DNA of 64,000 nt. It comes from an uncultured Gammaproteobacteria bacterium. GTDB lineage: Bacteria; Patescibacteriota; Microgenomatia; Levybacterales; GWA1-39-11. The number at the start of each line of letters is the position of its first letter. The stretch's first letter is position 1. Positions 42,131 to 60,885 of the stretch are shown here, piece by piece. The notes below the pieces were generated by a model. That model had not been told where the DNA came from, ran no database searches, and saw nothing but the letters and a program-made list of their open reading frames with translations. The stretch is from NCBI GenBank assembly GCA_964531275.1, contig CAZHDZ010000002.1, positions 58,180-122,179 of the forward strand, written 5' to 3'. Made by a program: the position numbers and the translations under genes.

Positions 42131-42300
42131 ATTGTGGACCCAAGAGGACTCGTTCTGCAACGCAGTGCGAAGCACAATCTGACCTAAAGTATCACGCTCA
42201 ACATGTGATTATTGTGGACGATACAGAATTCGAATCTGTGACCTTTACAATGTCAATGTAACGCTCTACGATTTGCAAAGCAAATTGAGTGCTCCAGCTG
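42131..42300 (-). repeat. Two degenerate partial copies of the tRNA-Val 3' region directly downstream of the intact gene.
   Basis: 42212-42300 retains the D-stem 3' side, an identical anticodon arm (TTACATTGACATTGTAA), and a T-arm and acceptor 3' side (ACAGATTCGAATTCTGT, ATCGTCCA) with compensatory changes, but has no matching acceptor 5' strand. 42135-42152 is an exact 18-nt copy of the T-arm/acceptor 3' end (CGAGTCCTCTTGGGTCCA). All three copies are followed by CAAxA. Confidence 0.6.
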
Positions 42301-55262: not shown

Positions 55263-55368
55263 GTGCCCGAGAGAGTGGTTCGACAGGCTCACCATTTGAA
55301 AAGAGTTCTTAATAAGTGCCCGAGAGAGTGGTTCGACAGGCTCACCATTTGAAAAGAGTTCTTAATAA
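55263..55368. repeat. 53-bp tandem repeat (2 copies), each starting with the last 12-13 nt of tRNA-Leu(TAG).
   Basis: GTGCCCGAGAGAGTGGTTCGACAGGCTCACCATTTGAAAAGAGTTCTTAATAA occurs twice (55263, 55316) and abuts the tRNA 3' end at 55369-55371. Confidence 0.85.
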
Positions 55369-55370
55369 GT

Positions 55371-55453
55371 GCCCGAGAGAGGACTTGAACCTCCACACCA
55401 TTACTGGTACTAGTTCCTAAAACTAGCGTGTATACCATTTCACCACTCGGGCG
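55371..55453 (-). tRNA. tRNA-Leu (anticodon TAG).
   Basis: Anticodon loop TTTAGGA and a long variable arm. Acceptor pairs GCCCGAG/CTCGGGC. Confidence 0.8.
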
Positions 55454-55574
55454 TATCATAGTTGCCGAGTGTAGTGATCACTCGGGCAAAAAACTCAGCC
55501 ATATGGCCGTAAGGGATATTATAACTTAAAAAACGGAGAATTTTAATCACCAACCACTAGCCACCAACCACCAA

Positions 55575-56990: not shown

Positions 56991-57050
56991 AAACTGATAT
57001 ATAATAATTTTGATTTGCCCGGATGATCGCTACATCCGGGATGAAAGTTG

Positions 57051-57136
57051 GCCCGGATGGTGAAATGGTATACACGCAGTGTTCAGAACGCTGTAAGGCA
57101 AGCCTTGTGGAGGTTCGAGTCCTCTTCCGGGCACCA
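57051..57136 (+). tRNA. tRNA-Leu (anticodon CAG), CCA encoded.
   Basis: Anticodon loop TTCAGAA and a long variable arm. An upstream hairpin at 57017-57040 repeats the tRNA 5' nine nt GCCCGGATG. Confidence 0.8.
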
Positions 57137-57241
57137 AGCTTTGCTTGGTGTAACCTCAGCTTAGCTGAGGCACACTATATAGGCATTCCTTTGCTCGCAA
57201 AAAAGATGGTTTGAGTCCGAGTTTCTCCCTGCCCCAGATGT

Positions 57242-58702
57242 ATGCAGTTCACTTCTTTTAACTTTCTTATTTTCTTCTTAGCCAATGCGTTGATTTTTCA
57301 CCTGTTACCAAAGCAAAAACTGAGAATTGCACTCTTACTTGCCTCAAGTACACTCTTCTATGCCTTCTACAAAGTTGAATATGTTCTCATTATCTTTCTT
57401 ATAGTATTGATCGATTTTTATGGCGGAAAATTTATTAATCAAGCAAAAAAGGCAAAGCATAGGAAGGCGCTTCTTATAGTAGCTATTTCTCTTAATTTGT
57501 TACTTCTTTGTTACTTTAAATACTTTAATTTTTTGCTAGGAACCGTTATGGACTTGTCCCATGTCATTAATGCAGGAGTTAAATTTGACCTCATTTCTTT
57601 ACTTTTACCTCTAGGAATTTCATTTCATACATTTCAAGGACTTAGCTATCTTGTTGAGGTCTATAAAAAAAGATACAAACCCGAGCGCAATATCATGATC
57701 TTTTCCCTATATATACTCTTTTTTCCCCAGCTTGCAGCAGGACCCATAGAGCGTCCGCAGGCACTCATACCTCAATTTAAAATGAAACAAAAATTTAACA
57801 AAGATGAAGCTGCAAGTGGTCTAAGACTTATCTTGTGGGGAGTATTTAAAAAGCTCTTAATAGCAGACAGGATTGCAGTGTTTATAAATCCAATTTTCGC
57901 AAATCCTGCTTCATTTAATGGATTTACCCTTCTTTTAGTTGTTTTTCTCTTCGGTTATCAAATATATTGTGATTTTTCAGGTTATACAGATATGGCACGA
58001 GGAGTTGCACGCTTATTCGGGATAAAGCTTGTAAGAAATTTTAACTACCCATACGCGAGCGCTTCTCCTGCGGAATTTTGGAATAGATGGCATATGTCAC
58101 TCTATTCGTGGTTCCGTGACTACATTTACATTCCCCTTGGTGGGAGCAGAGTCTCCACTATAAAGCGTTACCGTAACATATTGGTTGTTTTTGCACTGAG
58201 TGGATTGTGGCATGGAGCTTCATGGCATTTTGCTATATGGGGGTTATTGAACGGTCTGTATGTGGCCTGCTCTGCTCTTATCAGTAATAAATTAGGGAAG
58301 TTAGAATTTCCAGGGAGAAAATTTCTCTGCATAGCTCTTACCTTTGTATTAATTCAGCTCACATGGGTTTTCTTTAGAGCTTCATCTTTAGGTCAAGCAT
58401 TTAGTATTCTAGAAAGTATATTTTCATCCCTATTAAATTTAGCAGCTTACCCTTCCCAAATTAATCAGGCTCTTGTTAACGTATTCTCAAAAGAAGCAAC
58501 TTTTGGACAAGCAGGAATATTGTTATTTTTAATTGTATTTCTTGAAACGGTGCAATATTTTGCAAGAAATACGCCCATAATTAGTAAATTCCCAAAATAT
58601 CCAATTATTGTTCGGTGGGCAACGTATTATTTATTACTGCTTCTCATAATGTCTCTTGGTGTTGATATTCCTAACGTTAATTTTATTTACTTTACATTTT
58701 AA
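57242..58702 (+). CDS. MBOAT-family membrane-bound O-acyltransferase (AlgI/DltB-like).
   Basis: FWNRWHMSLYSWFRDYIYIPLGG is the conserved MBOAT His motif. 486 aa with ~10 TM helices. Confidence 0.8.
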   Translation: MQFTSFNFLIFFLANALIFHLLPKQKLRIALLLASSTLFYAFYKVEYVLIIFLIVLIDFYGGKFINQAKKAKHRKALLIVAISLNLLLLCYFKYFNFLLGTVMDLSHVINAGVKFDLISLLLPLGISFHTFQGLSYLVEVYKKRYKPERNIMIFSLYILFFPQLAAGPIERPQALIPQFKMKQKFNKDEAASGLRLILWGVFKKLLIADRIAVFINPIFANPASFNGFTLLLVVFLFGYQIYCDFSGYTDMARGVARLFGIKLVRNFNYPYASASPAEFWNRWHMSLYSWFRDYIYIPLGGSRVSTIKRYRNILVVFALSGLWHGASWHFAIWGLLNGLYVACSALISNKLGKLEFPGRKFLCIALTFVLIQLTWVFFRASSLGQAFSILESIFSSLLNLAAYPSQINQALVNVFSKEATFGQAGILLFLIVFLETVQYFARNTPIISKFPKYPIIVRWATYYLLLLLIMSLGVDIPNVNFIYFTF

Positions 58703-60071: not shown

Positions 60072-60128
60072 ATACTTAAGATCGTTGCTAAGGATGTGCT
60101 TTTTTAGTACAATAAAGCTCGATCTTTT

Positions 60129-60237: not shown

Positions 60238-60313
60238 GGGTCCTTAGCTCAGCTGGTAGAGCGCTTCATTTACACTGAAGATGTCAGGGGTTCGAGCCCT
60301 CTAGGGCCCACCA
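60238..60313 (+). tRNA. tRNA-Val (anticodon TAC), CCA encoded.
   Basis: GGGTCCTTAGCTCAGCTGGTAGAGCGCTTCATTTACACTGAAG... with anticodon loop TTTACAC. Confidence 0.8.
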
Positions 60314-60377
60314 AGCTTAGCTTGGTGTTAGGTCAGCTTAGCTGACCCACCATCAGGCAAAGTAGTTTGACCAGTAT

Positions 60378-60450
60378 GCCAAGATTGCCAAGTTGGTCAA
60401 GGCGCGTGTCTGAAGAACACGTTATCCGGGTTCGATTCCTGGTCTTGGCA
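60378..60450 (+). tRNA. tRNA-Phe (anticodon GAA).
   Basis: Anticodon loop CTGAAGA; T-arm CCGGG-TTCGATT-CCTGG; acceptor GCCAAGA/TCTTGGC. Confidence 0.75.
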
Positions 60451-60673
60451 CAAAAAAAGTGCATTTTTTTGCACAAAATTGAAATTTAAATAGTTAGCCA
60501 CGCCTTGCGATGGTTAACAAAAGGTGTATACAGAACACCTGCGGCGGTGGCGAAAGTCATATTGAAAATTAAAGAAAAGTGCGACGGTGAGCGGAAGGTG
60601 TTATAAAATGCACCTGCGGCGGTGAGAACCTTGCTTTTAGCAAGGACCTCGCCACCACAAAATTGAAAATTTT

Positions 60674-60745
60674 GCGGCGGTAGTTCAGTGGTAGAACGCT
60701 TCCTTGCCAAGGAAGAGGTCGCCAGTTCAAGTCTGGTTCGCCGCT
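60674..60745 (+). tRNA. tRNA-Gly (anticodon GCC).
   Basis: GCGGCGGTAGTTCAGTGGTAGAACGCTTCCTTGCCAAGGAAG... with discriminator U. Confidence 0.8.
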
Positions 60746-60885
60746 CATCACACTTTCTCTGGCATACCGCTCGCCCTGTCCGCTCAGCGGACTGCTACGC
60801 AGCACACCGAAGGTCTCGCCGCTTATAAGCCTCTTTCCTCTTGTTTTTGACTGTCATTTTTCATATCCTAGACTTTACTACTCCT

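Follow-up and report, generated by a model that had tools for sequence, protein, structure and literature searches.

Copies of tRNA 5' ends in acceptor-mimicking leader hairpins of a patescibacterial lineage, possible remnants of duplicated tRNA genes

The 222-nt spacer between tRNA-Phe (60378-60451) and tRNA-Gly(GCC) (60674-60746, plus strand, 67.9 bits; a functional gene whose CCA is not encoded) in the 64-kb stretch of patescibacterial DNA analyzed here, hereafter the window, carries several copies of the 5' end of the tRNA that it precedes. It belongs to a lineage-wide family of tRNA-terminus repeats, the 5' members of which form leader hairpins that mimic an acceptor stem. The reading we favor, at a probability of roughly 50%, is that the spacer was built from partial copies of the neighboring tRNA-Gly gene, each with a piece of its leader, that have since decayed, that these duplicates are the 5' counterpart of the tRNA-linked repeats known from E. 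coli and that they have been kept as self-neutralizing hairpins.

The spacer (60452-60673, plus strand) forms the leader of tRNA-Gly(GCC) within a four-tRNA cluster that probably yields one polycistronic precursor, Leu(GAG)-Val-Phe-Gly, with the spacer included. A single promoter-like site was seen on the plus strand, at 60085-60113 upstream of Leu(GAG), and none was found on that strand within the spacer itself. A search of all 64 kb for ACCTGCGGCGGTG returned two exact copies, at 60537-60549 and 60612-60624, and no third even when up to two mismatches were allowed; a previous sequence-only reading of this DNA had reported both, placing the start of the first one nucleotide too far downstream, at 60538. 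As that reading proposed, the copies match the tRNA-Gly 5' end, the shared part being TGCGGCGGT, which spans the spacer/tRNA junction at 60673-60681. Both copies lie inside a diverged tandem duplication with a period of ∼75 nt (60506-60549 versus 60580-60624), which is not reported by Tandem Repeats Finder (TRF) and is seen only as gapless repeat families. Two degenerate copies of the tRNA-Gly 5' end are also present on the plus strand, GCGATGGTT at 60507-60515 and GCGACGGTG at 60581-60589, the latter opening the second ∼75-nt unit. A 16-nt direct repeat (CACAAAATTGAAATTT at 60472-60487 and CACAAAATTGAAAWTT at 60656-60671, plus strand, 94% identity, spacing of 184 nt) brackets an inserted or duplicated block, with its second copy directly preceding tRNA-Gly.

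Copy A of the tRNA-Gly 5' end, GCGGCGGTG (60541-60549, plus strand), is preceded by the hairpin AGGTGT-ATACAGA-ACACCT (60522-60540, plus strand, z = -2.1), and copy B by the hairpin AGGTGT-TATAAAAT-GCACCT (60596-60615, plus strand, z = -2.8). Copy A corresponds to the A-type hairpin of two related loci, L101 and L086 (L numbers denote such loci throughout), its local closing arm having been lost in the window. The hairpin before copy A (60524-60538) is identical at 12 of 15 positions to the anticodon arm of tRNA-Phe (60406-60420), with a 7-nt loop and T as its second base, and may be another tRNA relic or a chance likeness.

The spacer as a whole is strongly structured, as the earlier reading had expected of it, with a minimum free energy (MFE) of -74.8 kcal/mol (z = -5.6; none of 200 shuffles equally stable), and the element at 60612-60662 folded alone also gives z = -5.6. 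The complementarity of GGTGGCG and CGCCACC and the hairpin CCTTGC-TTTTA-GCAAGG (60629-60645) that had been pointed out are both there. No Rfam family matches the spacer even at E <= 10, which bears out the statement that it has no recognizable riboswitch or T-box, and the tRNA model (RF00005) likewise has no match inside 60452-60673 at that threshold, only collinear tRNA-Gly fragments being detectable. The accompanying statement that the spacer has no open reading frame (ORF) needs only a small correction: on the minus strand it is overlapped by ORFs of 74 and 78 amino acids, but both also run through the tRNA on the opposite strand and are taken as spurious. Directly 3' of tRNA-Phe, GTGCA-TTTTTT-TGCAC at 60459-60474 scores as an intrinsic terminator when read on the minus strand (stem plus T7); no minus-strand gene ends near it.

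Copy B (60616-60658, plus strand) can be described as a collapsed tRNA-Gly pseudogene or "minihelix" from its fold, the similarity of its interior and the covariation of its helix. It runs from a 5' arm, GCGGCGGTGAG (60616-60626), through AA, the inner hairpin at 60629-60645 and AC to a 3' arm, CTCGCCACCAC (60648-60658), retaining the 5' acceptor strand, traces of the D-arm and anticodon arm, and a complementary arm. Its interior can be aligned collinearly to tRNA-Gly over parts of the D-stem, the anticodon arm and the T-stem (z = 3.9, p < 0.002); the interior of the L094 element also aligns with the tRNA-Gly interior (z = 2.7), and the copy in L085 extends to nt 18 of the tRNA. Because these interiors align and the L085 copy reaches that far, the elements are collapsed copies of the tRNA-Gly gene, and their origin from a tRNA gene is well supported. 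Signatures of duplication accompany them, in the form of the 16-nt bracketing repeat, the ∼75-nt internal duplication, a variable copy number and copies of the tRNA 3' end downstream.

In seven lineages the gene-proximal copy forms an 11-bp helix, GCGGCGGTRAS paired with SYTNCCNCCGC, whose cap is a variable interior of 3 to ∼80 nt; in L083, L094 and L101 the helix is followed by a linker, TC(A/G)CTA(C/T)G(C/T)TC, and then by the tRNA. In L101 the element is a clean hairpin of 12 bp closed by a triloop, and copy B of the window has lost one closing pair and the conserved linker. We counted pairs in an alignment of the seven lineages, with column shuffles and slid alignments as controls. Paired cells made up 85.7% of the helix, compared with 74% in the column shuffles and only 38-61% in the slid controls, double-sided compensatory changes were found at five of the 11 pairs, and none of 500 shuffles reached the observed covariation. 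Position 8 is U·G in four of the seven lineages. Position 5 is unpaired in all seven, with C opposite A, U or C. The acceptor strand of tRNA-Gly in L106 reads GCGGCCA rather than GCGGCGG, and both arms of the leader helix are altered to match it at positions 6 and 7, yet the mismatch at position 5 is retained. The Gly leader helix is thus, as judged from the aligned sequences, under constraint. Neither a T-loop consensus nor a CCA is visible in the leader elements.

The same kind of element in minimal form precedes two leucine tRNA genes. The leader element of tRNA-Leu(CAG) (57017-57050, plus strand) contains the hairpin CCCGGATG-ATCGCTA-CATCCGGG (z = -3.6), in which the first 9 nt of the tRNA, GCCCGGATG, recur exactly at 57017-57025, as had been noticed from the sequence, followed by the loop ATCGCTA (57026-57032), the complementary arm CATCCGGG (57033-57040) and the linker ATGAAAGTTG (57041-57050). 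The leader element of tRNA-Leu(TAG) (55453-55487, minus strand, z = -4.8) has the same layout, its hairpin (55464-55487, minus strand) comprising the copy GCCCGAGTG (55479-55487), the loop ATCACTA and the arm CACTCGG(C), and its linker being AACTATGATAC; this 5' copy was overlooked in the earlier reading, which listed only 3' duplications at Leu(TAG). Each of the two hairpins thus holds an exact 9-nt copy of its own tRNA 5' end ∼35 nt upstream of the gene, and their loops are near-identical while each stem matches its own tRNA. A homolog of the Leu(TAG) hairpin is found in L110, where pairing is kept by means of three G·U pairs, and is absent in L098 and L116. In L085 and L091, tRNA-Leu(CAG) is preceded by an element with this layout, and so is tRNA-Phe in L093.

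The copies are real and cognate-specific. With the tRNA genes masked, we searched the 150 nt upstream of each tRNA for the longest exact match to its own beginning. A copy of the tRNA's own 5' end of at least 7 nt was found for 13 of 80 tRNAs in a first census and for 13 of 85 in an enlarged census of 26 loci (the window and 25 related metagenomic loci), compared with 0.35% of non-cognate pairs of tRNA and flank. Copies of at least 8 nt occur for three of the seven window tRNAs as against 5 of 5968 non-cognate pairs, a difference for which our own arithmetic gives a binomial estimate of ∼2e-8. In all 13 cases the copy is followed by a complementary arm with five or six matches out of seven to nt 1-7, never seven. 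None of 15 tRNAs in control loci from unrelated phyla has a 5'-end copy of at least 7 nt. These controls were found through the MBOAT protein encoded at 57242-58699, with matches at no more than 42% identity; the MBOAT gene is widely transferred, and its search yielded no relatives of the locus. The census upholds the earlier view that the tRNAs' own 5' ends have truly been duplicated, mirroring the 3'-end duplications seen elsewhere, and that the duplications are systematic rather than due to chance.

Homologs of two proteins of the window carry the names Patescibacteria group, Candidatus Levybacteria or Candidatus Magasanikbacteria, which places the organism among the Patescibacteria (candidate phyla radiation). 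Relatives of the locus were collected by scanning metagenomes for the 5' half of tRNA-Gly, which gave 16 loci, and further ones through orthologs of the flanking PEBP and of a 174-amino acid protein, for which an NCBI contig encodes a match of 100% identity over 165 of the 174 residues (95%); viral contigs searched with the same tRNA half gave no match. The DUF1761 protein of the window is encoded without any difference in sequencing run ERR3839022. The earlier reading held only if the duplications were not confined to this window. For tRNA-Gly it survives, leader elements being present in L083, L094, L101 (whose PEBP is 90% identical), L106 and L086, and also in a second tRNA-Gly clade represented by L085/L088 and L093/L095, with homologous elements in independent JGI, ENA, NCBI and Logan assemblies. 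For leucine the outcome is mixed, in that the Leu(CAG) hairpin is absent from the syntenic loci L094, L098 and L110/L111, the promoter region being conserved in L094, L098 and L110, but elements of the same design do occur in relatives, before Leu(CAG) and, as the homolog in L110, at Leu(TAG). Copy number and interior length of the Gly elements differ among relatives, and several have no element at all: in L098 (a fully syntenic genome assembly), L090, L105, L082, L087 and L092 it is absent and the Phe-Gly gap is 1-30 nt, tRNA-Phe abutting tRNA-Gly in the syntenic L098, L090 and L105. Because several close relatives do without it, the leader element is dispensable. In L094 the element lies within the leader of a Gly-specific promoter, TTGTCA-17-TATACT. 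The 11-nt linker TCACTACGTTC (variants TCGCTACGCTC and TCACTATGTTC) stands directly before tRNA-Gly in L083, L094 and L101 and directly before tRNA-Leu(CAG) or its copies in L085/L088 and L091, and across 0.2 Mb of related sequence no exact match to the linker lies anywhere else. In L106 (239-700; PEBP 75% identical) the DUF1761 and PEBP genes flank a Leu-Val-Phe-Gly cluster that is inverted as a whole relative to them; the Val-Phe spacer of this cluster is identical to that of the window, but its tRNA-Gly acceptor stem differs.

Thermodynamic folding of leader plus tRNA gives two alternative predicted states that are nearly isoenergetic. With X1 denoting the copy of the 5' acceptor strand and X' the arm complementary to it, state N is predicted to combine an X1:X' hairpin with a normal cloverleaf, and in state S X' is predicted to pair with the 5' strand of the tRNA and X1 with its 3' strand. 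The predicted ΔΔG(S-N) is -1.4 kcal/mol for the window Gly locus, -1.9 for Leu(CAG), -2.0 for Leu(TAG), -1.2 for L094, +3.1 for L083 and +2.6 for L106, making state S the predicted MFE structure at all three window loci. Seven constructs were folded with X1 deleted in silico; in five of the Gly type and in Leu(CAG), X' is then predicted to capture the tRNA 5' strand, and for the Leu(TAG) leader the cloverleaf is still predicted. Competition between X1 and the true acceptor strand is plausible on these models, and because deletion of X1 frees X' to capture the tRNA 5' strand in silico, stray copies of an acceptor strand may be able to interfere with folding of the precursor.

Copies of tRNA 3' ends make up the downstream side of the family. 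The trailer of tRNA-Leu(TAG) (55263-55381, minus strand) is a 53-nt unit repeated 2.2 times at 100% identity (TRF score 238); the array directly follows the tRNA, every unit ends in the last 13 nt of the tRNA, and the perfect identity suggests that it is recent. A copy of the tRNA-Gly 3' end (GGTCTCGCCGCTT versus GGTTCGCCGCTC) lies 78 nt downstream of the gene, at 60812-60824 (plus strand), at the boundary of a trailer unit of which L101, L104 and L100 have tandem arrays. Val(TAC) has a CCCACCA copy 39 nt downstream, and Leu(GAG) of L083 has a 19-nt 3' copy. At least five of the seven window tRNA loci therefore carry copies of their own termini; the earlier count of four was right in kind and too low, as it had not taken in the 5' copy at Leu(TAG), the Gly 3' copy and the CCCACCA of Val(TAC).

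The trailers have further structure of their own. The tRNA-Gly trailer (L101 190-400, L104 1-170, L100 1-60 and window 60747-60837) consists of ∼78-nt units bounded by the 3'-end copy TGGTTCGCCGCTC or variants of it, each containing a pair of small triloop hairpins, the stems of which co-vary from unit to unit and from strain to strain; the number of units varies between close relatives, and there is no Rfam match. After tRNAs that encode their CCA (60307-60352 and 57129-57176 in the window; L082 and L106), the hairpin CACCAAGC-TTA-GCTTGGTG, whose 5' arm includes the CCA, is followed by a second hairpin with the same AGCTTAGCT core and then by a copy of discriminator plus CCA (CCCACCA, 39 nt after the first), a module conserved in relatives. 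The palindrome AGCTTAGCT is not enriched in the window.

Nested "tRNA-in-tRNA" loci were seen at L109 752-973, L094 7372-7603, L087 1955-2186, the Val locus of L093 and window 42214-42285. In these, the 5' part of one isoacceptor allele lies upstream, and its 3' part downstream, of an intact gene of that isoacceptor whose acceptor stem differs, and the resident gene is flanked by 6-9-bp inverted repeats of leader and trailer; two Leu(TAG) alleles substitute for each other in different lineages. The nested arrangement was confirmed by blastn for L109, L094, L087 and the Val(GAC) locus of the window, which has a 55-nt 3' tRNA fragment. In addition to its seven tRNA genes the window holds one partial tRNA-like match, at 42221-42285 (minus strand), and a single ORF of 8234 amino acids at 77-24781 (plus strand) takes up more than a third of it.

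Under the reading we favor, local duplication of segments comprising leader and tRNA, followed by internal deletions, would have left X1, some interior debris and X'. The copies would be transcribed along with the real tRNA and lost upon RNase P cleavage at the true +1, as we infer from the position of the only promoter-like site upstream of the cluster and from that of the L094 promoter upstream of its element. A free X1 would pair with the 3' acceptor strand of the real tRNA and a free X' with its 5' strand, either of which would misfold the precursor, and only copies whose X1 and X' neutralize each other would persist. Selection would then keep the X1:X' helix, lengthen it beyond the seven acceptor pairs and keep X' imperfect, such that X' prefers X1 over the real tRNA. 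Several observations weigh against this account. Simple self-duplication does not predict that one linker, TCACTACGTTC, should stand before tRNA-Gly in some contigs and before tRNA-Leu(CAG) in others. The position-5 mismatch suggests a specific constraint, being present in seven of seven lineages although the opposing base takes three forms, and the arms in L106 track the tRNA acceptor yet keep that mismatch, which a decaying relic explains poorly and which suggests selection for mimicry. Together, the shared linker, the invariant mismatch and the L106 covariation leave room for a functional minihelix or switch. Folds of sense and antisense strands are, moreover, evenly matched in stability, the sense fold being the more stable in 8 of 15 cases; selection may therefore act on a palindrome at the DNA level rather than on RNA.

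Of the other explanations, the one that we regard as a tentative possibility, somewhat unlikely as matters stand, is that the leader is a functional processing element, either a tRNA-like minihelix, in which an acceptor-type helix of 11-12 bp is followed in relatives by U and CAC, as in the true 3' flank of tRNA-Gly, or a bistable switch. RNase P on the 5' side and RNase Z or exonucleases on the 3' side would recognize the minihelix and excise the long spacer from the polycistronic precursor, and as a switch the leader would set the share of precursor that folds into cleavable tRNA. A conserved, covarying helix with an invariant mismatch fits such a role, as do the clean triloop hairpin of L101, the arms of L106 that follow the tRNA acceptor, the 11-nt linker conserved between hairpin and +1 in both Gly and Leu(CAG) leaders, the two near-isoenergetic predicted folds and the placement of the L094 element in the leader of a Gly-specific promoter; pairing in the leader also affects binding by bacterial RNase P, according to PMC9433436. 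The distribution is patchy, however, with the closest syntenic genomes making do with Phe-Gly spacers of 1-30 nt, the window copy lacks one closing pair and the linker, T-loop and CCA are both missing, the elements differ greatly in copy number and interior, and fold stability has no strand bias. The shared inner-hairpin and linker motifs of Gly, Leu(CAG), Phe and Val leaders in different contigs, the blastn-confirmed nested loci, recurrent breakpoints after G18G19 of the D-loop and antisense hairpins as stable as sense ones would instead suit DNA-level events that target tRNA genes, an explanation that we consider doubtful. Here either a small palindromic mobile module, made of the inner hairpin (G/A)ACGCGAT...ATCGC-TAGC, the arm and the linker, or a new tRNA cassette would have inserted into a resident gene and split it, its 5' fragment remaining upstream and its 3' fragment downstream. 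Yet no integrase or transposase was found among 20 ORFs scanned in the 64-kb window, TCRCTAC is not enriched there (10 found, 9.5 expected), exact linker copies occur only at tRNA 5' ends, repeat lengths span 7-18 nt where a target-site duplication would have a fixed length, and X' matches each host tRNA, an arm that a mobile module would not carry. A further reading, which we judge speculative and distinctly improbable, is that cis-encoded, co-evolving mimics of the acceptor stem make patescibacterial precursors bistable, the true 5' strand and the upstream copy competing for the 3' strand. This might provide a regulated maturation step, or the minihelix, once released, might divert enzymes or toxins that recognize acceptor stems; the mismatch and TCACTACGTTC would be recognition features, and the nested loci an undescribed form of tRNA-gene replacement.

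Two remaining explanations carry very little weight. Partial tRNA copies beside tRNA genes are the classical signature of integration (PMC9897764), and the 55-nt 3' fragment at the window Val(GAC) locus is of that sort; integrase-mediated entry of a prophage or island, with the copies as attL/attR duplications, is nonetheless very improbable and largely refuted, since the copies stand 25-130 nt from the gene, leaving no space for an element, no integrase or transposase domain was found in the 20 ORFs, and the copies are 5' ends of 7-18 nt within hairpins. Chance similarity, assembly artifact or a known cis-regulatory RNA is scarcely credible and can be taken as refuted by the census, the covariation of the helix and the Rfam searches. 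Short GC-rich motifs do recur readily, and GCGGCGGTG with one mismatch is found four times in the window against three expected, but all four occurrences lie within 140 nt of one another at the Gly locus, and the cognate-specific census excludes chance; an artifact is countered by the recurrence of the elements in assemblies of independent origin. Searches of the window and five relatives at gathering and permissive thresholds returned only tRNAs and no leader family of Rfam, and the downstream gene is the tRNA itself, not a coding gene of the sort that a T-box or riboswitch leader controls.

Several known systems resemble these elements in part. The tRNA-linked repeats (TLRs) of E. coli (Egan & Landy 1978; Rudd 1999) are, in the account given in PMC8144298, short repeats in tRNA and rRNA operons that vary in copy number, are co-transcribed, end in 18-19 bp of the 3' end of the upstream tRNA and mostly have no known function. 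The trailers found here are of this type (the 53-nt units of Leu(TAG) with 13 nt, the ∼78-nt Gly units of L101 and L104, and the 19-nt copy at Leu(GAG) of L083), matching in spirit the definition of a downstream repeat of the last 18-19 bp. The Phe-Gly spacer likewise lies in a tRNA operon and adjoins a tRNA gene, but its copies are upstream and repeat nt 1-8/9; unlike the E. coli TLRs, the leader elements join 7-18-nt copies of 5' ends to a complementary arm in a covarying, acceptor-like hairpin, and they occur in Patescibacteria rather than Enterobacteria. The partial tRNA genes of att sites (Reiter 1989 and Williams 2002, as cited in PMC9897764) also place a tRNA fragment beside an intact copy of the same gene; at those sites a kb-scale, integrase-encoding element lies between the two and the fragments are usually 3' parts of 20-60 bp, whereas here the distance is 25-130 nt and the fragments are 5' parts in hairpins. 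Archaeal split and intron-containing tRNA genes (Kanai and co-workers, as mentioned in PMC10714607) share separated tRNA pieces and leaders that pair with parts of the tRNA, but there a splicing endonuclease acts and the pieces are the functional gene, whereas here the pieces come in addition to an intact, contiguous gene. Pseudogenes in tandem tRNA arrays derive, as proposed here, from an adjacent gene by duplication and decay with detectable interior remnants; the present elements differ in being collapsed to 25-100 nt with no tRNA match in Rfam at E <= 10, and yet their helix is maintained by compensatory changes. In plant mitochondrial t-elements, MALAT1 mascRNA and minihelix substrates of RNase P, a hairpin within a longer transcript imitates the stack of tRNA acceptor and T-stem, and t-elements and mascRNA keep the T-loop and are experimentally processed. 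The leader elements offer a coaxial acceptor/T-type helix of about the same ∼12 bp (11 bp, or 12 bp plus triloop in L101), but have no T-loop or CCA and stand ∼11 nt from a real tRNA that already offers an RNase P site. They also do not behave as dispersed palindromic repeats of the REP or MITE kind: in the 64 kb and the ∼0.2 Mb of relatives searched, exact copies of the linker and arm are confined to the 5' ends of tRNAs, and neither TCRCTAC nor AGCTTAGCT is enriched in the window. Within the incomplete coverage of our literature search, we found no description of 5'-end tRNA copies or acceptor-mimicking leaders in Patescibacteria.

Repeats linked to tRNA genes have been known since 1978, mostly without an accepted origin or function, and this lineage presents a natural series of 5'- and 3'-side repeats at many stages of decay, among them one element, the Gly leader helix, with real structural conservation and co-variation with its tRNA. 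For the annotation of candidate-phyla-radiation genomes, it means that tRNA fragments within tens of nucleotides of intact genes, as here, are not signs of prophage integration. The series also makes two questions testable, namely whether stray copies of an acceptor strand must be neutralized because they would misfold the tRNA precursor, and whether tRNA-like hairpins may act as processing signals in bacteria with reduced genomes.

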